Shown here: positions 43,693 through 54,666 of the stretch, piece after piece | How the letters are laid out: each line of letters opens with the position of its first letter | Numbering within the stretch: the stretch's first letter is position 1 | NCBI GenBank assembly: GCA_002310035.1 | Contig: DBYC01000051.1 | Location: 1 to 54,666, forward strand | Length of the DNA stretch: 54,666 nucleotides | Direction: 5' to 3' | Source: a bacterium UBP6_UBA1196 | Lineage (GTDB): Bacteria; UBP6; UBA1177 | The notes under the pieces: generated by a model | Told to the model about the DNA's origin: nothing | The model's input: the letters and a program-made list of their open reading frames with translations, nothing else | Databases searched by the model: none | Made by a program: the position numbers and the translations under genes

Positions 43693-43795
43693 TGGTCACC
43701 ATCAAAAAATCAAAAGCTGAAAAGTATATAAAATTCGCAGAGACGGGCAAATTTTTGGAGTGTTGAATGTAAAAACAGGGGAGGTGACGGAATTT

Positions 43796-44593
43796 TTAAA
43801 AATTTTTCAGAGAATCTTTTAAAGGTTCAAAAAAACGGGAAAGTTTTTTGCTCACAGTGGATTTATCGACATTGTATTTCTTAACGATTTCCTTAAAGTC
43901 TGGTTCGTAATCATGATCTGCGGAATAAGCATCCAAAAGTTCTTTGTTTATGAAAGTATAATTCATCAAAATTTCAGTATTGAAACCATACAACAGCAAG
44001 TTTTGAAGAGTGGCTTGATAAAGTCTGCGATAAACCTCTTCAATATTAAAATCCAGCTTTAGGAGTAAAACTGTAAGGATTTCGGAAAGCATCTGATCAG
44101 GATGCTTTTTCCACTCTTTTTGAATTTTCGGAATAAGTTTCTGCAGGTCTTCTTTGATAAGGCTTTTCCCCAGCGGATCAGTGTCACTGCTTTCTATAAG
44201 AGTATCTAGAATGGAAAATGTTCCGCCTTCTTCATTCGTCTTTTCGAGTCCTGTGGCATTTGCATGTTCCTTGGCCTCTTCGCCTTTTGCGGTGTTTATC
44301 GCATTGTTCAATGACTTGAAAAGGTATAAGTGAAACTCCTCTTTTGAACCGGAAAAGCTTTTCAGACAATCTATGACCACTTTGTGAACTTCATCGACAT
44401 ATTCGCAGTAAGTGGATTTTTTTATCTCTTTAACAGTCAGGTCTGAATCCTGGGATGCTCCTTTTGGTTTTAATACCGCCTGGATGATTTTCCATGTAAA
44501 GCCTTTTATCGCGGCGTCAATGTTTTCACCGCGATCAACAACTCTTTGATATTCTTCATAAAGTTTATTGATCATTTCAAAATTTTTTTCCAT
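43796..44593 (-). CDS. Sigma-70-like / HTH transcription-factor-like protein (uncharacterised)
   Basis: 265 aa. The N-terminal helical region ends in EEFHLYLFKSLNNAINTAK (region-2-like). The C-terminal IVKKYNVDKSTVSKKLSRFFEPLKDSL looks like a sigma region-4 HTH. The start lies 2 nt after the stop of the upstream CARF-like gene. Confidence 0.35.
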   Translation of the reverse strand: MEKNFEMINKLYEEYQRVVDRGENIDAAIKGFTWKIIQAVLKPKGASQDSDLTVKEIKKSTYCEYVDEVHKVVIDCLKSFSGSKEEFHLYLFKSLNNAINTAKGEEAKEHANATGLEKTNEEGGTFSILDTLIESSDTDPLGKSLIKEDLQKLIPKIQKEWKKHPDQMLSEILTVLLLKLDFNIEEVYRRLYQATLQNLLLYGFNTEILMNYTFINKELLDAYSADHDYEPDFKEIVKKYNVDKSTVSKKLSRFFEPLKDSLKNF

Positions 44594-44595
44594 GA

Positions 44596-45216
44596 TCAGT
44601 CCTCGAACAATGCTTCGATCGTCTTTATTGCACGTTCGCTGCTTGAAGTCTCGATCATGTTGGTAAAGTTCTGCATAAGATAGAGCGGAGTGATGTCATA
44701 GATCATTTGCGAGCCTTCTATGATCTCGTTGTTTTTGAATTCAACTTTGGAATAAACGATGTAACCGATGGAACAATCGAAAAATTTCTCTGCAAACTGA
44801 CACACTGTGAAAAGCAGAAATGCCAAAGGTTTCGGGCCGTAAGTAGTATCGGCATAGATTTCGGCATCATGCTCGAGTTCTTTGAGGATGGCCTTGAACA
44901 TAAACTGAAAATTTGTTTTCGACATATCGAACGCGCTCGGAAGTATTTTATAAGTGATTTTTGCTCCGACCTTGTTGAAATGATCGAGTTCTTCCTTAAA
45001 AAGTTTTGCGTTGTCGCTTCCTGCGTTTTCACCTCCTTTTGTCTCAAGAAGGAGGACTTTGACTTCATCATCGGCTTTAAGCGAGTTCGCAAGAGCAGCC
45101 GTCGCAGCAAACTGAATAGGTTCTTTAATTTCAAGCAAAGCGTTCCCGTCAACGGGATAAACGCATTTTTTTAAATTTCCTTTAAGCGGAAGTGTTACAA
45201 ATAAGATTTTTTTCAT
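44596..45216 (-). CDS. Minimal CARF-like (Csx/TM1812-type Rossmann-like) domain protein, not CRISPR-linked in this window
   Basis: 206 aa. KKILFVTLPLKGNLKKCVYPVDG (beta1 plus G..Y..Y pattern). VKVLLLETK. AD-TTYG-PKPLAFLL at aa 123-127 sits in the position of the CARF DxTHG motif. GYIVYSKVEF....MIYDITPLY resembles the YGAFE...P(I/V)xDL(T/S)P segment of Csx1/Csx2-type CARFs. GAGGTG RBS. Confidence 0.45.
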   Translation of the reverse strand: MKKILFVTLPLKGNLKKCVYPVDGNALLEIKEPIQFAATAALANSLKADDEVKVLLLETKGGENAGSDNAKLFKEELDHFNKVGAKITYKILPSAFDMSKTNFQFMFKAILKELEHDAEIYADTTYGPKPLAFLLFTVCQFAEKFFDCSIGYIVYSKVEFKNNEIIEGSQMIYDITPLYLMQNFTNMIETSSSERAIKTIEALFED

Positions 45217-45300
45217 TTTTTCACCTCAAATAGACAAATAAATCTGTCTGTTTTTATAAGTTTGTAAAATTTTCACAATAAAAGAACTGTTTACACTGTA

Positions 45301-45330
45301 TATAAGCTGCGAAAAACCGGAGAGTTGACA
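45301..45330 (-). promoter_or_regulatory. Island motif copy a (TATAAGC-N16-GTTGACA on +), 85 nt upstream of the CARF-like gene
   Basis: tataagctgcgaaaaaccggagagttgaca. Same length and end-blocks as the copies at 46937, 52138 and 54309. Confidence 0.6.
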
Positions 45331-45363
45331 AAAATTTTGTAAAAACTTCATAATCGCATGGTT

Positions 45364-46902
45364 TTATTGATGTTTTTCTTTGGCTTTGTCCATTTTCGCC
45401 AGCTCTAAAGTGAGATATATCAGGTATATCTGGATCGCAAAAGCGTGCTTTTCAAAGAAATCCTCTTCCTCGTTTTCAGAGCAGTATAGAAAACTCATGA
45501 ATTTTTTCAGATGATCAAACTCGTCTTTGTCTAGCACATCCTCGTTGTAGATGTTAGTTTTGCTGATTTCATCCGGATCTAGAGCGAGATTTTCGGTTTC
45601 TTCCTCAAAATTGAAAACTTTATGCCACAATTCTTCGTTGTTTGCCGCATTGATGTTCAGAGGATCCGTGATTTTTTTGAAATAATGATTCAGAATTATG
45701 ATAAGTTTTTCCGTATTTTCTTTCTGAGCAGGATCTTTTTTGAGTTCGCAGAGATATTTGTAAGAATCGAAAAAAGCCTGAAAGACCAACATTTTCCAAT
45801 TCAATATTTGTTCGTATTTGAGGGAATCCGTGTATTGATCACTATATTTGTCGAACAGTTTATATACGGCGACATTCGCACCTAAGTGCGTTATCCTGTT
45901 GCGTTCAGGATACAAAAACTTGTGATTCAGCGCGCTTCTATTCGTAAAGCGGTCGTCTTTGGTGGCTTGGATCGGCTTCCCCAATTTAAACGAAGGGCTT
46001 TTGTTTAACCATTCCATTTCTGATTCTTCAAAAAATTTGCAGGTTATTTCCCTGCGGAATTTTTCATTTCCGGCAAAAAACATCTGTGTAAAGTCCGGAT
46101 CCTTGAAACCGAAATCGAGTTCTTTGAGTTTTTCGAGGTTCGTAAGGACCTTTGTTATTTCTTCATGTGCTTCCGCCTGAGAATAATTCGATGTTTTTCT
46201 GTTCGGGAAGATCTTGAGGATAGATTCCTGATGTTCCCTTACAAAATTTATTACGTTGATGAGTTTTTCCCTCGGAACAGTTTCGTTTTCGGGCGGCATG
46301 AAATTCGCCAGAATGCGTAGAACGCCTTCATTCGCCTTGAAATAGTTCCCTTCGAATTTGGTAAAATCGATGTCGGTGAAGGGATCTTCTTTTAAAAAAC
46401 CGAGATCTTTATTGATTTTATTGAGTATTTCACTCTGTTTTTTAGGCAGATACCATGATTTTTCTTCTAAAGCCGAATCAAAAAGTTCCTTGATTTTCGA
46501 TTTCCGCTCTTCGGAAGCGAAAAATGTTCCGGCTTTGCAGATATCACGCAGCAGAAAGAAGAAAACTCCCTGCAAAAGCCGCATGTCTTCCTTAAAATTT
46601 TTTCTGCTGGTCTTTTTGATATTTTTAGGTCTGAATATCGACAAAACGGCCGAAGCCTTTTCCTCAATCGTTTCACCAGCTATGATTTTGCTTGTTGCGT
46701 CAAAAATATTCTGTTCCACAACAGCCTCAGGTGCATGAAAGATCTTTTTGAGGTGATCAATATTCAAACCTTTGAGTGAGCAGTAAAGATCGGAAACTTT
46801 GTCGGGATCATCGCTGAAGCTGCCGCGAAGAGCCTCTTTCTCCGCCGTGATTTCTGTAATTATCTTATCAAGTTCTTCTTTTGATCTCATGGCATTCTCC
46901 AT
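45364..46902 (-). CDS. Uncharacterised protein with an HEPN-like RNxxxH motif (candidate RNase effector)
   Basis: 512 aa (the alternative ATG at 46890 has the better GGAG RBS). ...NRSALNHKFLYPERNRITHLG... carries RNRITH at aa 334-339 (nt 45886-45903), preceded by a second Rx4H (RSALNH, aa 322-327). Otherwise predicted to be mostly helical. Confidence 0.4.
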   Translation of the reverse strand: MENAMRSKEELDKIITEITAEKEALRGSFSDDPDKVSDLYCSLKGLNIDHLKKIFHAPEAVVEQNIFDATSKIIAGETIEEKASAVLSIFRPKNIKKTSRKNFKEDMRLLQGVFFFLLRDICKAGTFFASEERKSKIKELFDSALEEKSWYLPKKQSEILNKINKDLGFLKEDPFTDIDFTKFEGNYFKANEGVLRILANFMPPENETVPREKLINVINFVREHQESILKIFPNRKTSNYSQAEAHEEITKVLTNLEKLKELDFGFKDPDFTQMFFAGNEKFRREITCKFFEESEMEWLNKSPSFKLGKPIQATKDDRFTNRSALNHKFLYPERNRITHLGANVAVYKLFDKYSDQYTDSLKYEQILNWKMLVFQAFFDSYKYLCELKKDPAQKENTEKLIIILNHYFKKITDPLNINAANNEELWHKVFNFEEETENLALDPDEISKTNIYNEDVLDKDEFDHLKKFMSFLYCSENEEEDFFEKHAFAIQIYLIYLTLELAKMDKAKEKHQ

Positions 46903-46936
46903 TCAAAACAGCAATCCAATGATTCTGCTGATAAGA

Positions 46937-46966
46937 TATAAGCGGTGGAAAAATGAGAAGTTGACA
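46937..46966 (-). promoter_or_regulatory. Island motif copy b, 35 nt upstream of the HEPN-motif gene and abutting the stop codon of the preceding gene
   Basis: tataagcggtggaaaaatgagaagttgaca. Confidence 0.6.
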
Positions 46967-47485
46967 TTAAAGTGGCAAATCAGCAAATGGGTACTTTTTT
47001 TGATAGGCTTCGAGTGTTCTGTTGATACTGCGTTTAACACCGTTAAGCGGATTCCAAACAGATTCTTCTGTCGCATTTATCGTTTCATCATAAAGAGCAT
47101 AGGCGATAGGCATGTTGTTGGATCCTATAAAAACAAAGAACAGCTTTAAATTGATTCGTCGTCCTTTTCGATCCATTTGTGCATCGAATTGCTTAAATAC
47201 TGTTCTGTAATCTTTCAAAAAGTCAACAGATGATTTTTCTATATCCTCTTTGCTTGATTTATAGCGGAGAACAAAACAATGAATCCTGTCATTCTGAAAG
47301 TAGCCCCCGACAAAACTATCCCCGTCAAAGTCTTCAGTAATTTGTTCCCCTGATACGCATTTTTCGTAAACATTGAAAGCATCTTTCTGGCTGTTTGAAT
47401 AAATATAAGGGAAATGAAGATTCTGTGCCCGAACAGCAGCAAAAACGAACAACACTGCCAAAACCGCCAGAAACTTCTTTAACAT
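46967..47485 (-). CDS. Secreted hypothetical protein (172 aa)
   Basis: The ATG at 47485 follows GGAGGG. Signal peptide MLKKFLAVLAVLFVFAAVRAQ. No known motif. Lies 81 nt downstream of mkoB with no copy of the island motif in between. Confidence 0.55.
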   Translation of the reverse strand: MLKKFLAVLAVLFVFAAVRAQNLHFPYIYSNSQKDAFNVYEKCVSGEQITEDFDGDSFVGGYFQNDRIHCFVLRYKSSKEDIEKSSVDFLKDYRTVFKQFDAQMDRKGRRINLKLFFVFIGSNNMPIAYALYDETINATEESVWNPLNGVKRSINRTLEAYQKKYPFADLPL

Positions 47486-47566
47486 TTTTCCCTCCATGAA
47501 AGTTTAGATCCGTGATCAACAAAATTCATGCAAGAATAGTTCAAATATGTGATTTGTAAAGGGATT

Positions 47567-48904
47567 TTAGTTGAATTTTGCGATCTGCTTTAAAATCTCA
47601 TCTTGGTTCATGTTGATCGTTGATGTTTCGCCCCTTGCGTCTTTCTCGTCACCGCCGCCGAAACTTAACCAGTTGAAACTTCCCATTATCATGAAATCAT
47701 CGTCGCAGATAACGATCTTGGAGTGGTCGTCAGTTTTTATCAGGCGGAAGTTGTCTTTGCCGAGCGAGTCAAAAAATTTCTGCGATTCTTTGTCGATACC
47801 GATTTTGTCAAACCTGTTTCGCGGTTTCATGCCGTACTTGACTGTAACGCGCACACCTCTTTTAACGGCATTTTCTATATACTCTTTATAGATTTGAAGT
47901 GTCCGCCAGTTGATCCACGGAGATTGGATGCAGATGCTTCTTTTTGCATTTTCAAGGACATAGATGAAGTGTTTTTTGTGTTCGTCAACCTCGATGGTTT
48001 TCCCGTCAGAAATGGAAATTTCCTCTACCGGCTGGATTTTTTCTTTAATGATTTCAGGAGTCGTCTCATTGAATTTCTCAATATTTTTTTCAAATATCTT
48101 CACGCTGTTCGGTGAAATATTTTCGTAGTCGAATTTCTGTTCGTTTAGAATACGGTCAAACAGTTGCGTAGCCTGGAAATCCTCTTCGTAATCTTTGTTG
48201 AGGACAAGGAATCTTTCATTTCTTTCTTCATCTTTATAGAACAAACAGATGTATCTGCGGAAGAACTTGCCGGGCGCAACTTCAAATATATCCGTTATAT
48301 CGTTGCCATCCTGCAGATTTTCTATAACGACCTGCCGGAGGGTCTTGTTGTCGGAAAATTCATCATCCAGATATTCCGTTCTCGGGCGCGATTTTACATA
48401 AGGTTTGAATTCTATGGCACCGTTTCTTGACTTTTGATCCAGTTTATTTGTGTCCTCCAAAACTGTTCCGAATATTCCGTCAAAATAAAGCCAGGCAGAA
48501 GCGTTTTCCGTGACCAGTTCCGTTTCTTTTTCCAAGATCTCCTTTCCTTCTTTGGAAAGTTTCAGTTCATCCTGCCTTATATCATTCTGCTTCAGATAAC
48601 CTTTTGTCGTGATGTCTGCCAGAATAGTGTCCAAGATCTCTTCGTCCAGTTGAGTGATTTCCTGCAGATATGAATAGGAATCATCGTCTTTGACAGTTTC
48701 AAGGAACTGTATGGTCTTCAACACGGATATAATCACCGGGTGTATCTTCCGTTCTTTTGTAACTGCATACATCACTTTTGTTCTGTATACCGGGTAGTCT
48801 ATTTCGCGGGCGTCATACATTGCAAAGCCTTCGTAATGGTCGCTGTATCTGTGGGTAAGCAGTTCAAGATCCAGCTTGATAGCGTTATTTTGCTTTTCAG
48901 TCAT
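47567..48904 (-). CDS. mkoB: PLD-family (single HKD) nuclease, Mokosh type I MkoB-like
   Basis: 445 aa. C-terminal ...TDDHSKIVICDDDFMIMGSFNW carries the HxK(x4)D motif (nt 47702-47725). Only one HKD, as in Nuc/Zucchini-type dimeric nucleases. 8-nt overlap with the upstream helicase gene. Confidence 0.75.
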   Translation of the reverse strand: MTEKQNNAIKLDLELLTHRYSDHYEGFAMYDAREIDYPVYRTKVMYAVTKERKIHPVIISVLKTIQFLETVKDDDSYSYLQEITQLDEEILDTILADITTKGYLKQNDIRQDELKLSKEGKEILEKETELVTENASAWLYFDGIFGTVLEDTNKLDQKSRNGAIEFKPYVKSRPRTEYLDDEFSDNKTLRQVVIENLQDGNDITDIFEVAPGKFFRRYICLFYKDEERNERFLVLNKDYEEDFQATQLFDRILNEQKFDYENISPNSVKIFEKNIEKFNETTPEIIKEKIQPVEEISISDGKTIEVDEHKKHFIYVLENAKRSICIQSPWINWRTLQIYKEYIENAVKRGVRVTVKYGMKPRNRFDKIGIDKESQKFFDSLGKDNFRLIKTDDHSKIVICDDDFMIMGSFNWLSFGGGDEKDARGETSTINMNQDEILKQIAKFN

Positions 48905-51900
48905 GTTTTCCTCCCAATTTGATCACTTCATAAGACTCTTTGTTTTGATTGATATATTCGATTATGCTTTTGAACGGATTGTCTTTGTCGGAGACTTGGG
49001 CTTGATAAAGAAAGTCCATGTCGCCCACGATGACCAGCAGTTTTTTTGCTCTCGACAGAGATACGTTGAGACGTTTTTCATCCGCGATGAAGTCTATCTT
49101 CGCTTTGCCTTTCAACTTTCCGGATCTTACGCAGTCATAGATGATAATGTCCCTGTCGCTTCCCTGGAAGCTGTCGACCGTTCCGATATCTATGCTGCAA
49201 TCTGCAAAATTTTTCTTCACGGCGAGTTTTTTGCGCAATGCCGCCGCCTGAGCCTTGTAGGGCGTAATTATTCCGATGTCGTAGTTAGTTCCGCAGTTTT
49301 TCATCTCCGTTTGGATCTGCCTTAATGTCCTCTCGATAACAGATGCATTGCAGCGGTTTATTTTTCCGGTTCCTTCCTGTTCGTCTTCCTTGTCGGACAG
49401 CATTCCGGTGTCGTACCAGACGACGCTTGATCTGAAGCTGAGAGAATGTTTCTTTTGAGCGTTTACGGCATCGGTTGTCTTCAGTTCGCCGTTGTAGAAG
49501 GGTATGTTGTACAGATTGCAAATGTCGCGTGCAGAGCGGTAGTTGTGGTTCAGGGTATGAAGCAGATTGGGCCTGTCTGCATTCTGAATACGCTCAAACA
49601 TCCGCTGGAAGAACGAAGTCTTGGCTTCATCCCTGTCTTTGATCTTTTCGAGCACATCGTCATCAATGACCGGAGCAAGCTGTTTGTGGTCACCGACAAG
49701 TATCAGCTTTCTCGCTTTTATGCACGGAACGAGCAGTTCGCTAAGAGTGGCTCTTCCGGCTTCGTCAACGATCACAGTGTCAAAAACGATCTCTCTGAAA
49801 CTTTTCCATGATGAAATACCGACCAAAGTGCCGAAGACGAGTCTGATGTTCTGCGTGAAAAGCGCAGCCAGTTCAGCTTCTTTGTTTTTTTCTCCGTTTT
49901 TGCTGCTGTTTCCCATTTGAGAAGTTATGTGCTGCAATTGTTCCCGGAAATCTTTCTGCAGTTCCTGCATCTTGCTTTGTATTATCCAGTTAGGGTGCGA
50001 TACGGGATTTCCGTCTATGTGCTTTATGTTTTCCTGAATCATTTTGTTCAGCACTCTGTGCGGCATGTAGTTTTGCGCTGTTTTGCTGATTTTGGTCTCA
50101 TCGTTCCCGATGCGGAGGATCTTGTCTTCAATGCCGCAGATCTTTTCAAGGACATTGTCTACAGCCTGATTGCTCTGGGATGCCACAAGTATTTTCTCAT
50201 GGGGCCGCGTTTTTAAAAGCTGGGTAACTATCTCGGTTATAGTCACGGTCTTTCCTGTTCCGGGAGGGCCCTGCAATACCATCAGTTCGCATTTGTCATC
50301 CAGAGACAAGGCTTTACGGACCGCAAGCTGCTGATTTTCGTCAAGGCTGGTGTTGTAGAACTTTTCTACATCGATCAGATCGTTTTTTATGAATTCCTGA
50401 GGCCGGTTTATCTTTCTAAGGAAGTTGTGAATGTATACGTTGCCGTTCTGCAGCTGATCAAGAGCAAAGTCTTTTTTGTTCCAGACGGCTTCTTCCGCCT
50501 GATAATCATAGCTCAGAAAGTATTCCGAACCCTTTTCCAGATAGAATCCTTTGTTTTGATCATCAGCACATTTTGCGACTTCGTATTTCCCCACTTTTAC
50601 AGTTACGGAAAAGCCCGATTCAGATCTCTCAACGACACCTTTCAGTGCATCGTCAGAATCCAAATCCTCCTGCAGGATGACGTTCTGTTTCTGCTTGAAA
50701 TCCTTTTCGGAACGGCTGTTTTCTGTTTCTGTCTCATTTTTTGCCGCATTTTCTTCAGCCTCATCTTTGTCTATTACATATTCCAATGTCAATGTGTCGT
50801 CGCCGCGGTTCAATTCCTTCAGGATCACCTTTCTGGTGTTCTTTTTTTCATCTATAGTCCTTTTTTCCGCTTTCAGCAGTTCCTCTTCAGTTGCAATGCT
50901 TTTGGAGTCAGTTTCATAACGCTCGTTTTCGCGTTTTTTCTGCTCGTACAGCTCTTTTAATTTCTCGATCACGCTTCCTGCATCATCGCAGTTCCAGTCC
51001 TGTTCGTTTGGGCCAAGTATTTTGAACATATCGTCTGTCGAAAGCCCGTATTTCTGCAGGAGTTCCGTTTTGGAAGGACTTTCGAGAATGCCAAAGCAGA
51101 AAAAATAATGACTGTTTTCTTTTGCAGAACAGCAGAATATCAGATCTCCGATAGCGATCTTTATTTCATCGCGGTCGCTTTTGTCTTTACCAAACTCCAA
51201 ATAAGCGTGGGAATCTTTGATTCTTTTCCTGATGTCATCTTTTTCGGCATACAGTTCGCAATCGTGGTTTTCCCTCCATTTCTCAAGCACGCGGCCGCCT
51301 ATTTGAATGCCGAAAGTCTTGTTGGGCATGATCTCTCTCAGCAAATCGTTAAGTTTTCTGCGGACATCAAGCAGTTTTATGCGTTCTTCAGGATTAGCGT
51401 TCAGCATTGCCTTTATGATCATGAGCAGTTCGGCATTCGTTTTATCAAGCTGCTCTTTATGTTCGGCAATACGCCCGTATATTTCTTCCAGAGAATCGAA
51501 ATCTTGGTAAGAGTCCGAGAATGTAGAGGAATCAAAATGCGACCCAAGCAAAAGGTCGAGCATACAAAGCCCGAGCGAGTATATGTCGCTTTCTTTGCGG
51601 CATTCGTTCTGAGCGATTTGTTCCGGAGCATAGAAGCGCTTGTCCGGTGAACTGCTCATCATTGCATAGATGTAGCATCTGCCGAAATCGAGCAGATAGG
51701 CATGATCCTCTCTGTCGATCAAGATATTCTTAGGATTGATATTGCCGTGATAAAAGCCTTTCTGGTGAATATATTCAACCGCATCGACAATCTGCTGGTA
51801 GCACTTTATGAGCGAAACATAGTTCGAACCGAACCAGTCAGGCTTCAATTCGGAATATCCTTCGTCGAAATTCCGGTCGACAAAATAGAAGTTTCTCTCA

Positions 51901-52094
51901 TCCTCTTCTATCTTAAGATTGCTGATGTTCTGGTGTGAAACCAGGTTGATGTTTTTCGCGATATTGGAGTATTTCCCGCTTGCCGTGCTCTTGGCCACGA
52001 TTTCTATGCGGTAATCGCAATCGTTGTATCGCGCGATTTTGAGAGATTTTGATTCTTCACTGATGACCTCGTATTTCCCTAAGATTTTAGTCAT
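48897..52094 (-). CDS. mkoA: Ser/Thr-kinase-like domain fused to an Upf1-like SF1 helicase (COG1112/AAA_11-AAA_12), Mokosh type I MkoA-like
   Basis: 1065 aa.
- N-terminus: ..YIHQKGFYHGNINPKNILI...LLDFG...FYAPE (kinase subdomains VIb/VII/VIII).
- C-terminus: GPPGTGKT (nt 50247-50270), VIVDEAG, LVGDHKQLAPV, NYRS, TPYKAQ, VDSFQGSDRDIIIY, RLNVSLSRAKKLLVIVG. Confidence 0.8.
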   Translation of the reverse strand: MTKILGKYEVISEESKSLKIARYNDCDYRIEIVAKSTASGKYSNIAKNINLVSHQNISNLKIEEDERNFYFVDRNFDEGYSELKPDWFGSNYVSLIKCYQQIVDAVEYIHQKGFYHGNINPKNILIDREDHAYLLDFGRCYIYAMMSSSPDKRFYAPEQIAQNECRKESDIYSLGLCMLDLLLGSHFDSSTFSDSYQDFDSLEEIYGRIAEHKEQLDKTNAELLMIIKAMLNANPEERIKLLDVRRKLNDLLREIMPNKTFGIQIGGRVLEKWRENHDCELYAEKDDIRKRIKDSHAYLEFGKDKSDRDEIKIAIGDLIFCCSAKENSHYFFCFGILESPSKTELLQKYGLSTDDMFKILGPNEQDWNCDDAGSVIEKLKELYEQKKRENERYETDSKSIATEEELLKAEKRTIDEKKNTRKVILKELNRGDDTLTLEYVIDKDEAEENAAKNETETENSRSEKDFKQKQNVILQEDLDSDDALKGVVERSESGFSVTVKVGKYEVAKCADDQNKGFYLEKGSEYFLSYDYQAEEAVWNKKDFALDQLQNGNVYIHNFLRKINRPQEFIKNDLIDVEKFYNTSLDENQQLAVRKALSLDDKCELMVLQGPPGTGKTVTITEIVTQLLKTRPHEKILVASQSNQAVDNVLEKICGIEDKILRIGNDETKISKTAQNYMPHRVLNKMIQENIKHIDGNPVSHPNWIIQSKMQELQKDFREQLQHITSQMGNSSKNGEKNKEAELAALFTQNIRLVFGTLVGISSWKSFREIVFDTVIVDEAGRATLSELLVPCIKARKLILVGDHKQLAPVIDDDVLEKIKDRDEAKTSFFQRMFERIQNADRPNLLHTLNHNYRSARDICNLYNIPFYNGELKTTDAVNAQKKHSLSFRSSVVWYDTGMLSDKEDEQEGTGKINRCNASVIERTLRQIQTEMKNCGTNYDIGIITPYKAQAAALRKKLAVKKNFADCSIDIGTVDSFQGSDRDIIIYDCVRSGKLKGKAKIDFIADEKRLNVSLSRAKKLLVIVGDMDFLYQAQVSDKDNPFKSIIEYINQNKESYEVIKLGGKHD

Positions 52095-52137
52095 TTTAAA
52101 CCCTCCATGTTACAATTGACCTTCAACTCACACCACC

Positions 52138-52167
52138 TATAAGCGTCGGAAAACTTCCGAGTTGACA
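52138..52167 (-). promoter_or_regulatory. Island motif copy c, 44 nt upstream of mkoA
   Basis: tataagcgtcggaaaacttccgagttgaca. Differs from copy d at only 2 of 30 positions. Confidence 0.6.
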
Positions 52168-52200
52168 AAAAATCTGCGCAAAAAGCTTAAAGCTGTTAAA

Positions 52201-53946
52201 TTATTGGTTATTTCTTACACATACAACTTTGAGTTTATAGTCGAGAATGTAGGGAAAATCGGCAGAATGCGCTCCTCCGAGATCGTATGCGTCAACAAGC
52301 ATCGTCATGTGACCGACTCTGGCGTTCAAGAAGTCAACGCTCCAGGCTTCTTTAGTGTTTTCCGGGTCGAGAGTTGACGACCAGAAAGCCTCTTTTGATT
52401 TGATTTTGCTGAATTTGGGATCGTTTATTTCTTCCAAGAGTTGTTTTCGGGTTTCTTCTTCGAGCTCGTAGTATTCCGTTTTTGCCGTCAGAGTGTTGAT
52501 TTTACCGCACCCGTTGCAGTCTTTGCTCCAGCATTTTTCATTAAGGCACTGTCTGTTTTCGCTGATTCTGCACCTGCCTCCCGCTTTGGTTTTGTCGCAG
52601 TTTTGAATGAGCGTGCGCAATTCATCGATGTTTGGCAGGCGCCAGTCGGAATGGTTGTTTTCCGCAAGGTTCGAGCAGTAATTTTGTGCTTCTTCCCATG
52701 TCATCGGATCGGCTGCAACGGATGACCACTTCAAAGATTTGGGATTCGGTAATGATTTCTCAGGTTTCCTTTTAGGTTTGACCTTGAAATCGTCATCTTT
52801 TCTGTCACGGACGCAGATCACATCTGTATCGTGGTTTATCACCGGCACATAAAGAGCGAGGTCGAGCACCGGACTGTATGTCCAGCCGAACCGGTCAGGT
52901 CTCGCATGAGAGCCGTCCCATATTGAGTTCGCCGTGAGAGCCCTTATCCCGTGAGTGCTTCTTGCAGCAAGGAAAAAACTTTCGTTCCCGTCTTTTTCCA
53001 GTTTTTTGGTATCTTTGTTCAGCGATCTCAATTCTTCAATCGTCGGCTGGCGCCAGTCGTCGAAGCCTCCTTCTCTTAAAAATTCGCAGTATGCATAGGC
53101 ATCATGCACCCCGAAAGTATCGTCCACGCAGTCACGATACAGGTATCCGCAGGGAATTTCCCGTTCTTCGTCTTCTTCACAGATCCAGCTTTCATCGCAA
53201 AGTTTTTTTGCTGCGGAGTACATAATGTGCCGCTCTGCAAGCAGCGTTGCTGTGTAATTTTTCTTTTTCGACATCGTGCTTTCAGACCACTGCAGTTTGT
53301 CAGGATCAAGTGCTTTTTCCATTTCAATTTTTTTCTCTGCGGCAAAGTCTTTCGGGGAAGATTCCCTGACGCATGCAACATTGCAGAGATCATACTTACA
53401 CGGACGGCACGGATGCCAGTCAGGATCGGCAAGGCAGCTTTTTCCGCTAACCATCCCGTAACCGTTAAACCAGTTCTGGTTATTTTCCTTTTCGTTAAAA
53501 GACCAGAAACAGCTGTCGTAAAGGTAGAATCCGTTGACATAAGTCCGCAATGTGTCCGTCTCTTTTTCTGTGTAGAATATGCCGCTTCCCTCCTTGAATC
53601 CTGAACAATCTTTCATTATTGATTTCAATTCCTCGGTTGTCGGCGCTCTCCAGTCGGAAAAACCGTCTTCGCGCAGCTCTTCGCAGTATTCTGCGATGGT
53701 GTCGTAATACATCGGTCCGGGAGAGGGCTGCGACCACATCAGATTCGGTTTGGCATCGGTTGTTACACTAGACTGCGTCTCGTGCCGTATGACTGGATCG
53801 GGATCATTTTCAGGTTGAATCAGAATTATACTTTCTGTAGTCGCCTGATTTGTTGATTCCTCTTTTTCTTCTTTTGAAGAACAACTGCAAAGCACAATAC
53901 AGAACACAATCACACAAAGGTGTAAAATCATTGAAAGATCTTTCAT
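52201..53946 (-). CDS. Lipoprotein with three DUF1566 (Lcl C-terminal-like) domains
   Basis: MKDLSMILHLCVIVFCIVLCSC lipobox. Three signatures: FSDWRAPTTEELKSI, FDDWRQPTIEELRSL, HSDWRLPNIDELRTL. Ends ...VVCVRN. Confidence 0.75.
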   Translation of the reverse strand: MKDLSMILHLCVIVFCIVLCSCSSKEEKEESTNQATTESIILIQPENDPDPVIRHETQSSVTTDAKPNLMWSQPSPGPMYYDTIAEYCEELREDGFSDWRAPTTEELKSIMKDCSGFKEGSGIFYTEKETDTLRTYVNGFYLYDSCFWSFNEKENNQNWFNGYGMVSGKSCLADPDWHPCRPCKYDLCNVACVRESSPKDFAAEKKIEMEKALDPDKLQWSESTMSKKKNYTATLLAERHIMYSAAKKLCDESWICEEDEEREIPCGYLYRDCVDDTFGVHDAYAYCEFLREGGFDDWRQPTIEELRSLNKDTKKLEKDGNESFFLAARSTHGIRALTANSIWDGSHARPDRFGWTYSPVLDLALYVPVINHDTDVICVRDRKDDDFKVKPKRKPEKSLPNPKSLKWSSVAADPMTWEEAQNYCSNLAENNHSDWRLPNIDELRTLIQNCDKTKAGGRCRISENRQCLNEKCWSKDCNGCGKINTLTAKTEYYELEEETRKQLLEEINDPKFSKIKSKEAFWSSTLDPENTKEAWSVDFLNARVGHMTMLVDAYDLGGAHSADFPYILDYKLKVVCVRNNQ

Positions 53947-53971
53947 TTCTCCTCCTGTTAGGGTCGTTGTG

Positions 53972-54265
53972 TTATGCAGCGCAAAGAAAGCGATATTCTT
54001 CGCGCCAGAGTTTCTTATATTCTAAAGCGATGATCTTGTTCCGCTTCTGATCGTAAGCCTGTTTTGAACAGCAGCCTTTCTTTGATTTCTGGCTTGTCAG
54101 GTGGAAGCAGCCGCACTCTTTGCAGAAATATTTTCTATGCGGAATCTTTTTTGCTCTGTTGCCGTGATGCTTCGCGCCGTTGATAGCGTTTCCCGCTTCT
54201 CTTTCTGTGTAACAGATCTTTCCCTCGCTTTCACATCTGATCTCTCTTTCGAACTCGTCTTTCAT
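53972..54265 (-). CDS. Small Cys-rich zinc-ribbon-like protein (97 aa)
   Basis: C-x7-C ... C-x2-C (RCESEGKIC...FCKECGCFHLT), basic. 25 nt upstream of the DUF1566 lipoprotein gene. A paralogue lies at the window end. Confidence 0.55.
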   Translation of the reverse strand: MKDEFEREIRCESEGKICYTEREAGNAINGAKHHGNRAKKIPHRKYFCKECGCFHLTSQKSKKGCCSKQAYDQKRNKIIALEYKKLWREEYRFLCAA

Positions 54266-54296
54266 CTTTCCCTCCTCTTGTTGTCAATCAAACTGC

Positions 54297-54440
54297 CTAC
54301 ACAACATATATAAGCGGTGGAAAACTTCCGAGTTGACAGAAAACTTTAACAAACTCCTCTTTTTCTTCTTTTGAAGCGCAACAGCAAAGCATACAGAGTG
54401 TTAAAACACAAAGGTACGAAATCATGAAAGATTTTTTCAT
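54297..54440 (-). pseudogene. Remnant of a DUF1566-type lipoprotein gene (signal peptide plus SKEEKEE only)
   Basis: MKKSFMISYLCVLTLCMLCCCASKEEKEE parallels MKDLSMILHLCVIVFCIVLCSCSSKEEKEE of the 581-aa protein. DNA homology stops near 54354, and the frame runs into motif copy d and a stop codon. Confidence 0.6.
54309..54338 (-). promoter_or_regulatory. Island motif copy d, 44 nt upstream of the zinc-ribbon gene
   Basis: tataagcggtggaaaacttccgagttgaca. Confidence 0.6.
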
Positions 54441-54468
54441 TTTGTTTCCTCCTGTTTGGGTTGTTATA

Positions 54469-54666
54469 TCATGCTGCGTGAAGAAGATAGCATTCTTCGC
54501 GCCAGATATCTTTGTTTTCACGTTGGCGAAGTTTTTCTTTTTTGTAGCGGTATTTTTCCTGCAGCCTCTCCTTTTTATGGGAGGCGGATTTACAGGTCAG
54601 GTGATAATGACCGCAATCTTTACATGGATACATTCTCTTGGGAATCTTTTTTGCTCTGTTGCCGTG
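54469..54666 (-). CDS. Paralogue of the small zinc-ribbon-like protein (5' end lies outside the window)
   Basis: Reads HGNRAKKIPKRMYPCKDCGHYHLTCKS...DIWREECYLLHAA*, collinear with HGNRAKKIPHRKYFCKECGCFHLTSQKS...KLWREEYRFLCAA* of 53972-54265. Confidence 0.7.
   Translation of the reverse strand, partial: HGNRAKKIPKRMYPCKDCGHYHLTCKSASHKKERLQEKYRYKKEKLRQRENKDIWREECYLLHAA

Follow-up and report, generated by a model that had tools for sequence, protein, structure and literature searches.

The question raised by this locus is what a 30-nt element does in front of four consecutive gene units of a single genomic island. The window (the whole stretch of DNA that was analysed, 54,666 nt, positions 1 to 54,666 of contig DBYC01000051.1, assembly GCA_002310035.1, from the bacterium UBP6_UBA1196) carries the pattern TATAAGC-N16-GTTGACA before an operon for a CARF protein and a sigma-like protein, before the gene of a 512-amino-acid (aa) protein, before a Mokosh unit, and before a pair of zinc-ribbon and lipoprotein genes. 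The original prediction proposed a dedicated promoter that joins Mokosh, the 512-aa gene and the CARF/sigma-like pair in one regulon and is possibly read by the sigma-like protein of the island. Comparative evidence supported this proposal, because the motif was conserved in at least ten genomes, was missing in front of the window's housekeeping operons, co-occurred with the pair down to 25–30% sigma identity, and co-varied with sigma region 4. The island's own alternative sigma factor rather likely uses the motif as its promoter, and this cognate promoter is probably gated by the CARF protein. The constant company of a CARF sensor gene and a divergent sigma gene suggests a signal-inducible, modular defence regulon. 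The two proposed regulators are encoded as follows:

43796-44593, minus strand: putative divergent sigma-70-family protein, 265 aa, proposed reader of the motif
44596-45216, minus strand: stand-alone CARF protein, 206 aa, proposed signal sensor

A pattern search of the 54.7-kb window returned four exact matches, all on the plus strand. The genes of the island region all lie on the minus strand, and the four copies, with their scores against the weight matrix described below, were:

45301-45330, minus coding strand: motif copy a, heading the CARF and sigma-like operon, 84 nt to the CARF start codon, 55 bits
46937-46966, minus coding strand: motif copy b, heading the 512-aa gene, 34 nt to its start codon, 37 bits
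52138-52167, minus coding strand: motif copy c, heading mkoA-mkoB and a 176-aa gene, 43 nt to the mkoA start codon, 61 bits
54309-54338, minus coding strand: motif copy d, heading the 97-aa zinc-ribbon and Lcl_C lipoprotein genes, 43 nt to the zinc-ribbon start codon, 54 bits

The positions first reported for the four copies were thus matched exactly, and each copy stood, as had been claimed, upstream of the first gene of its unit (34, 43, 43 and 84 nt to the start codons). No match to the pattern was found in 100 dinucleotide-preserving shuffles of the window, and when three mismatches were tolerated, one extra match appeared in the window, which is the chance level. The position weight matrix was built from 27 unique instances taken from the window and related loci. 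The four copies scored 37–61 bits, while the rest of the window reached at most 12 bits on both strands and the shuffles at most 5.7. Copy b was the lowest-scoring copy because the downstream GTGTG was absent; it adjoins the stop codon (46967-46969) of the preceding 176-aa gene, as had been noticed at the outset. Chance or recent local duplication was rejected as the origin of the copies, given that the flanks of the four were unrelated to one another and that the motif was conserved across species.

Read on the coding strand, the element consisted of an A/T-rich tract followed by TTTTGTCAACT-N6-TTTTYC-N3-GCTTATA-N4-GTGTG. The four window copies aligned on the minus strand as TTT-TGTCAACT-N6-TTTT-Y-C-N3-GCTTATA, and the consensus of the 27 instances (A/T-rich tract, TTT TGTCAACT N6 TTTTYC RMC GCTTATA nnTnGYGTG) exceeded 30 nt (30–45 nt), with several conserved positions lying outside every search pattern used. 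The geometry of the two blocks, GTCAAC-N17-CTTATA, was the spacing of sigma-70-family promoters. Furthermore, the start codons behind the motifs were preceded by Shine-Dalgarno sequences, GTGTG was conserved 5–9 nt past the −10 block, where initiation would be expected, and the instances, all on the coding strand, mostly ended 34–95 nt before the start codon. The motif has the layout of a sigma-70-type promoter: its two blocks are about 17 nt apart, and it stands ahead of genes, on their coding strand.

An operator for a repressor or activator, overlapping an ordinary promoter, could also account for a conserved site in this position. The spacer TTTTYC was unusually conserved, a short palindrome, CGGAAGTTTTCCG, was present in copies c and d, and the 265-aa protein, with its C-terminal helix-turn-helix, could be a plain transcription factor. 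The palindrome was nevertheless missing from most copies, and the consensus had no dyad symmetry. In the short gaps between the island units, neither a sigma-70-like promoter nor a coding-strand terminator was found, and the homology of the 265-aa protein spanned sigma regions 2 and 3, beyond the helix-turn-helix. An operator is thus very unlikely. A structured RNA or attC-like hairpin was likewise rejected, since RNAalifold gave 0 pairs on 23 instances and Rfam had no match in the window; no conserved inverted repeat or hairpin was found in the same 23 instances.

The organism's standard promoter was another candidate for the motif. The original prediction would have given way if the motif preceded unrelated housekeeping genes, and no such copy occurred in the housekeeping operons of the window: the ribosomal-protein cluster (L3, L2, S3), secY, rpoA, pgi and the surA-like genes had none. 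Other genes of the window were preceded by a sigma-70-like arrangement, in line with the different TTGCC-type arrangement described earlier before the lipoprotein genes:

20553, 22400, 27047, 19440 and 43750, minus strand: cTTGCC/TTGAC-N16-17-TAnnAT sites upstream of lipoprotein and ABC2 genes

This arrangement is probably the housekeeping promoter type of the organism. A standard promoter was rejected for the canonical copies, as they were absent from these housekeeping operons and, in each genome, occurred on a single contig. A near-perfect sigma-70 consensus, TTGACA-18-CATAAT, was also observed at 45325-45354 on the plus strand, built from the end of copy a and directed antisense into the 512-aa gene. 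It is probably coincidental, because the other copies did not have it. A plus-strand sigma-70 promoter with TTGACA as its −35 was rejected in general: a matching −10 occurred in copy a alone, no −10 was conserved in the 27 instances, and a transcript from it would run antisense to the gene lying upstream.

The distribution of the motif was investigated in 185,579 species-representative genomes with the exact pattern TGTCAAC-N7-TTTT-N5-GCTTATA, for which about 17 matches were expected by chance (our estimate, from about 1.2e12 positions / 4^18). The scan returned 30 stretches. About 13 of these were in unrelated taxa and had none of the extra conserved bases. The full extended motif was present in about 19 copies, all in nine uncultured rumen or gut species, for which the depositors' labels were 'Spirochaetales', 'UBP6' or 'bacterium'. 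Six genomes had at least two copies, and in each of them all copies lay on one contig and one strand, within 1.5–19 kb. The motif stood on the coding strand before island units in at least ten genomes, these relatives being incomplete metagenome-assembled genomes. Gene maps of 17 contig segments gave 39 instances, and all 39 were on the coding strand of the island, each heading a unit; the random orientation that had been named as a sign against a promoter was therefore not seen. A scan of viral contigs gave a single match (L076), which had no supporting context, is probably due to chance, and was set aside.

The sigma-like protein had few close relatives, ten among 5.8 billion clusters, and an exhaustive profile search raised the number of relatives to 77. 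A search of the PDB with the single 265-aa sequence (phmmer) gave nothing meaningful, and the family profile alone succeeded. With the profile of 68 relatives, SigA of Bacillus subtilis was the best PDB match (E = 6.6e-10), and RpoS, RpoD and SigF were also found, the matches covering regions 2–3. Individually, 26 of the 68 relatives matched TIGR02937 at E <= 0.01 (best E = 3.1e-7), and in the 265-aa protein itself the TIGR02937 alignment extended to profile position 163 of 165. Region 4 was recognised by Pfam Sigma70_r4 or r4_2 at E <= 0.01 in just 2–3 of the 68 relatives; a conserved C-terminal helix-turn-helix segment, EIxxKYxxxKSxxSKKLSRFFE, was present. A segment of about 57 residues corresponding to region 3 was kept in a 295-aa relative and was missing from the forms of 265–270 aa. 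Because the short forms lack this segment and four longer relatives among the 68 matched Sigma70_r3, the clade looks like group 3 sigma factors with a secondary loss. The AlphaFold2 model of the 265-aa protein reached a pLDDT (predicted local distance difference test) of 79.5 with 68 sequences, compared with a poor value of 51 with 10 sequences. On profile evidence, the protein is taken here to be a highly divergent sigma-70-family member.

The CARF protein matched the PADLOC model CARF2--CARF with E = 1.5e-72 over positions 1–204 of 205, and it matched TIGR02221 with E = 2.5e-12, below the cut-off of that family. Just 2 nt separate the CARF stop codon from the sigma-like start codon. Such tight gene spacing is common for stoichiometric partners. 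The CARF signature, [DN]X[ST]XXX[RK] after strand 4 (PMC4012209), was present as D123-T-T125-Y-G-P-K129, and D123, T125 and K129 were invariant in six relatives at 59–81% identity. The leader of the CARF operon (45217-45300, minus strand) measured 84 nt in the window, L003 and L022, this longer form containing an insert with a short hairpin, AGACAGATTTATTTGTCT, and about 43 nt in L001 and L009.

The linkage between the motif and the CARF-sigma pair was then considered across relatives. In every contig of relatives looked up, the 206-aa CARF gene was immediately upstream of the sigma-like gene. Among close relatives, the motif stood before the CARF gene wherever the start of the operon fell inside the fetched sequence, including a case in which the sigma was 30% identical. 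In relatives with 25–26% sigma identity, a CARF gene whose product was 56–62% identical preceded the sigma gene, and TGTCAACT-N15/16-CCTTATA-like sites were present. Furthermore, a metagenome scan with the CARF alignment yielded 28 loci. The sigma-like gene directly followed CARF in 23 of them, and in three of the other five the contig ended at or inside CARF. In these 28 loci, 24 GTCAACT sites were on the CARF strand vs 6 on the opposite strand. Where CARF was at least 39% identical, nearly all loci had such sites ahead of the operon and immediately behind the sigma gene. An exception was L056 (CARF 50% identical), which had no GTCAACT site.

A distant clade (CARF 33–35% identical) had no GTCAACT. 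Its own repeated motif, AAACCCTTAAGT-N15-CATTAT, stood in the corresponding places, ahead of CARF, behind the sigma gene and ahead of further genes, with coding-strand orientation throughout (L061, L063-L070). This second motif class was of the CCTTAAGT type, in contrast to the GTCAACT type, and sigma region 4 of the same clade read SEAMASKNLKELL instead of KSxxSKKLSRF. Motif type and sigma region 4 thus change together, as a cognate sigma-promoter pair predicts. In a third group (L062, L071), direct repeats TAATGAATGrTAGTTAGT were seen upstream instead. In addition, some more distant relatives (L046 330-752; L051-L053) had a small gene between the motif and CARF, giving a three-gene operon; in L046 it encoded 140 aa and belonged to no Pfam family.

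These findings bear on a second alternative, in which the promoter is read by a sigma factor encoded elsewhere and the CARF/sigma-like pair is one more cargo unit. The link between the sigma and the promoter is correlative, the 265-aa protein falls under curated sigma cut-offs, and it lacks the region-3 segment of its 295-aa relative, all of which would agree with a reader from another locus. Such a reader would leave unexplained that the pair and the motif occurred together in every close relative, down to 25–30% sigma identity, that the operon of the pair was itself headed by the motif, that a clade with a different sigma region 4 had a different motif in the same places, and that the canonical copies were limited to the island contig. 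A sigma factor encoded elsewhere is thus unlikely. The step in which the island's own sigma reads the motif is supported by co-occurrence, co-variation, geometry and island confinement.

Several results weigh against a promoter that is read by the island sigma and gated by CARF. The 265-aa protein matched TIGR02937 with E = 8.7e-4 and 19 bits, the curated cut-off being 42.9, and Pfam gave no match in it. Foldseek comparison of its model with the PDB gave a best E of 0.25, with sigmaE, sigmaH, AlgU and ShbA as just weak full-length matches. The CARF protein had no known anti-sigma domain. Analysis of the window turned up neither cas10 nor a cyclase nor a CRISPR array, and the 25 most frequent defence families of 97 neighbour proteins from the metagenome loci included no cas10 or cyclase. 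In locus L047, no motif preceded the CARF gene. Part of the cargo was not obviously defensive (NrdDG, glycosyltransferase, carbamoyltransferase, lipoproteins). Moreover, the exact-pattern scan of the genome collection would miss divergent copies elsewhere in those incomplete genomes, and all of the evidence is computational.

The motif also marked the places where gene content changed. The original prediction had offered a cassette boundary or recombination site as the alternative to a promoter, and had suggested that related genomes would show whether cassettes are gained or lost precisely at the motif. Flank homology was found in 18 instance pairs: it was restricted to the left, upstream side in 6, restricted to the right, downstream side in 10, and present on both sides in 2. 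The homology broke 0–19 nt from the motif. Two features of the window belong here:

43769-43790, minus strand: fifth, decayed copy of the motif, ccGTCAcCTCCCCTGTTTTTac, reduced to a half and lying directly behind the sigma-like gene, in which the −35 half and the T-tract remain
54355-54666, minus strand: contig-end remnant, comprising the tail of a second zinc-ribbon gene (stop 54469-54471) and the start of a lipoprotein gene (ATG 54440)

In the decayed copy, a natural change had turned GTCAAC into GTCACC. The genome Tb.RUG.391 had, at the same position, a complete motif that headed a zinc-ribbon gene and an AAA_14/DUF4143 gene. The deletion junction in the window fell inside the motif, past the T-tract, with the rest of the motif and the cassette missing. 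The remnant lipoprotein gene kept about 29 codons, with the lipobox LCCCAS, and its homology to the full Lcl_C gene stopped about 16 nt before copy d; the truncation first noticed at copy d was thereby confirmed. Moreover, 98% identity to Tb.RUG.391 began 5 nt upstream of copy d. The window and Tb.RUG.391 are probably of the same species, because their flanks are 98% identical. Across 43796-45216, the CARF genes of the window and Tb.RUG.391 (L022) were 77% identical and the sigma genes gave no nucleotide match (265 aa vs 293 aa). This difference in the regulator pair looks like an allelic replacement within one species.

The cassette-boundary description is therefore right as a description. 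It is a further step to hold that the motif is primarily an integron-like recombination site, at which a recombinase swaps cassettes and promoter activity is secondary. The 16 of 18 homologous pairs that shared one flank alone, the breaks 0–19 nt from the motif, the start of identity to Tb.RUG.391 next to copy d, the half-motif at 43769-43790 and the lipoprotein gene that breaks off 16 nt before copy d would all agree with it. The arrangement also recalls integron arrays (attC), in which co-directional variable cassettes are separated by a repeated short site where synteny breaks. Nevertheless, none of the island and flanking genes examined had a domain of an integrase, transposase or recombinase, and the 23 instances showed neither an inverted repeat nor a hairpin, the consensus fold having 0 pairs. 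Unlike in integrons, the site stood at the 5′ end of each unit and was promoter-like. Integron cassettes are mostly promoterless. A constant coding-strand position before start codons, blocks at promoter spacing and an A/T-rich tract would be needless for recombination, and the motif type switched along with the sigma clade. The breaks themselves are also expected if the promoters are short anchors for ordinary homologous recombination, so that recombination between conserved promoter copies explains the breakpoints without a dedicated enzyme. A dedicated recombination site is thus unlikely; what stood of the earlier alternative was the break of homology at the motif edges.

The genes behind the motif in the window, apart from the CARF-sigma operon, were:

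45364-46902, minus strand: 512-aa gene, single-gene unit behind copy b, containing RNRITH
48897-52094, minus strand: mkoA (kinase and superfamily 1 (SF1) helicase), behind copy c, MkoA E = 9.3e-201
47567-48904, minus strand: mkoB (PLD), behind copy c, MkoB E = 4.9e-58
46967-47497, minus strand: gene of a 176-aa secreted protein, behind copy c
46967-52094, minus strand: whole unit behind copy c (mkoA, mkoB and the 176-aa gene)
53972-54265, minus strand: gene of a 97-aa zinc-ribbon protein, behind copy d
52201-53946, minus strand: gene of a 581-aa Lcl_C/DUF1566 lipoprotein, behind copy d
52201-54265, minus strand: whole unit behind copy d, the commonest unit across genomes (clusters cl1 and cl0)

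The identities first given to these genes held for MkoA, MkoB, CARF and the Lcl_C/DUF1566 lipoprotein, and the 265-aa protein was indeed a weak sigma-70 match. The unit behind copy c had the composition of Mokosh type I, with the MkoA helicase and the MkoB PLD nuclease adjacent and with Pkinase, AAA_11/AAA_12 and PLDc_2 domains. The MkoA units of RGIG9961 and RGIG2292 likewise carried the motif. The 512-aa protein matched no Pfam, PADLOC or NCBIfam family, and copy b together with its gene recurred as a unit in L001 and RGIG10212.

The units differed between genomes. In addition to the zinc-ribbon and Lcl_C lipoprotein pair, MkoA/MkoB and the 512-aa gene, there were units of NrdG/NrdD/kinase/methylase, of a DnaJ-domain protein with a 326-aa protein, and of a radical-SAM protein with a 791–847-aa protein. 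Further units combined a GT4 'conflict' glycosyltransferase-radical SAM/SPASM gene and genes for a phosphatase, a carbamoyltransferase and an epimerase, or vWA, PP2C, a Ser/Thr kinase and an SF1 helicase; still others were HTH-PIN-ankyrin and AAA_14/DUF4143. Most motif-headed units consist of defence- or conflict-type genes. Among the 97 neighbour proteins, PADLOC recognised MkoA, PDC-S01, viperin, DolB and a CARF-PD-DExK effector.

Some further observations were made on the neighbours. The CARF-PD-DExK neighbour of the CARF-sigma pair matched PADLOC CARF4 with E = 7e-189 (metagenome loci L048-L069), and another neighbour was viperin. The most frequent gene behind the motif encoded a cysteine-rich protein of 97–105 aa (CxxC...CC, cluster cl1), which matched no known family and in many genomes directly followed the sigma gene; this protein may be regulatory, for instance an anti-sigma. 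An AAA_35/KAP-type NTPase gene (582–598 aa) was located between mkoB and the CARF promoter, in the opposite orientation, and had no motif:

L035 4740-6488 (minus strand), L003 7447-9195, L022 1-866, and RGIG9961: AAA_35/KAP-type NTPase gene

It was absent from the window, where the 512-aa gene occupies that position.

Taken as the promoter of the island's own sigma factor, the motif would work as follows. The −35 element GTCAAC(T) would be read by sigma region 4 and the −10 element (C)GCTTATA by sigma region 2, the two being separated by a 17-nt spacer with the conserved T-tract and preceded by the A/T-rich tract. Transcription would probably start in GTGTG, 5–9 nt downstream. One copy would drive the CARF-sigma operon, which amounts to positive autoregulation, a feature common to many alternative sigma factors. 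Further copies would drive the neighbouring cassettes, that is, Mokosh, the 512-aa gene and the zinc-ribbon/lipoprotein pair in the window, and other defence-type genes in relatives. The co-transcribed CARF protein may hold back the sigma for as long as no nucleotide signal is bound to CARF; the signal could be, for example, a cyclic oligoadenylate whose synthesis is encoded at another locus of the genome. Release of the sigma by this signal would turn on the whole island during infection. For the CARF step, gene coupling and precedents (CalpL/T/S and related systems, the DdvS regulon, Csa3, RtcR) are the grounds on which we infer control of the sigma. The motif copies may also double as joints for the exchange or deletion of cassettes, because every cassette begins with the same ~45 nt.

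Sigma-controlled defence islands and cyclic-oligoadenylate-linked sigma factors are already known. In Myxococcus xanthus, the extracytoplasmic function (ECF) sigma DdvS and its transmembrane anti-sigma DdvA control an island of CBASS (cyclic-oligonucleotide-based anti-phage signalling system) and type III-B CRISPR-Cas, which is driven by the DdvS-dependent promoters P1–P4 (PMC11506125). As in that case, an alternative sigma is encoded in the defence island here, several putative cognate promoters head operons, and the sigma gene would be under its own promoter. The differences are that in place of DdvA, a zinc-binding transmembrane anti-sigma with a TPR-CHAT domain, the sigma is paired here with a stand-alone CARF protein of the cytoplasm; that the sigma belongs to a different, far more divergent clade; and that the cargo is variable (Mokosh and others), with promoter copies that coincide with cassette junctions.

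In CalpL/T/S, a type III CRISPR signalling system, sigma-factor release is linked to cyclic tetra-adenylate (PMC11229360). The present pair resembles CalpL-CalpT-CalpS, CASP-sigma and PCc-sigma in that a sensor domain of the cyclic-oligoadenylate type would be coupled to a sigma and to a transcriptional immune response. In contrast to CalpL-CalpT-CalpS, the pair consists of a bare CARF adjoining the sigma gene; no SAVED-Lon or caspase-like protease, no CalpT-like anti-sigma gene beside it, and no type III CRISPR locus nearby was found. A further difference is that the candidate target promoters are evident here from the sequence, and we know of no mapped target promoters for CalpS.

CARF regulators of transcription are also known, namely Csa3 (CARF with a helix-turn-helix) and RtcR (CARF with an AAA+ activator of sigma-54) (PMC4012209). 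In both, as proposed here, CARF serves as a ligand sensor controlling the transcription of defence or repair genes; in these proteins it is fused to the DNA-binding or activator domain, whereas here a separate 206-aa CARF protein is paired with a sigma-70-family protein. The motif likewise resembled autoregulated ECF promoters, having blocks about 16–17 nt apart, AAC in the upstream block, a T-tract in the spacer and a copy before the sigma's own operon. ECF promoters have an AAC-containing −35 element, a T-rich spacer and usually a −10 of the CGT type. The −10 block here was GCTTATA, not of the CGT type, and, unlike ECF sigma factors, the longer relatives of the 265-aa protein carried region 3 and so resembled group 3.

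In the literature searched, there was no bare CARF paired with a private, very divergent sigma factor, no directly readable regulon promoter heading every cassette, and no coincidence of promoter copies with cassette junctions. A wider possibility can be put forward tentatively: the CARF protein may be a new kind of nucleotide-responsive anti-sigma that frees a private sigma once a cyclic oligoadenylate, or a related signal of infection, is bound, with exchangeable cassettes (Mokosh, viperin, kinase/helicase and others) wired in by a promoter of about 45 nt that is also the exchange joint, and with clades of orthogonal promoter specificities. The question lends itself to direct tests, because promoter, sigma gene and sensor gene have each been defined.

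Anti-phage systems have mostly been treated as constitutive stand-alone units. Here, one promoter appears to join unrelated systems under a private sigma and a CARF protein, and the target promoters of a defence sigma would be readable straight from the sequence. The distinct clades of motif and sigma could give orthogonal promoter-sigma pairs for engineering. If the proposed mechanism is true, second-messenger signalling would lead to gene induction without a protease step, unlike in CalpL/T/S, and cassettes would join or leave the regulon at the promoter itself.

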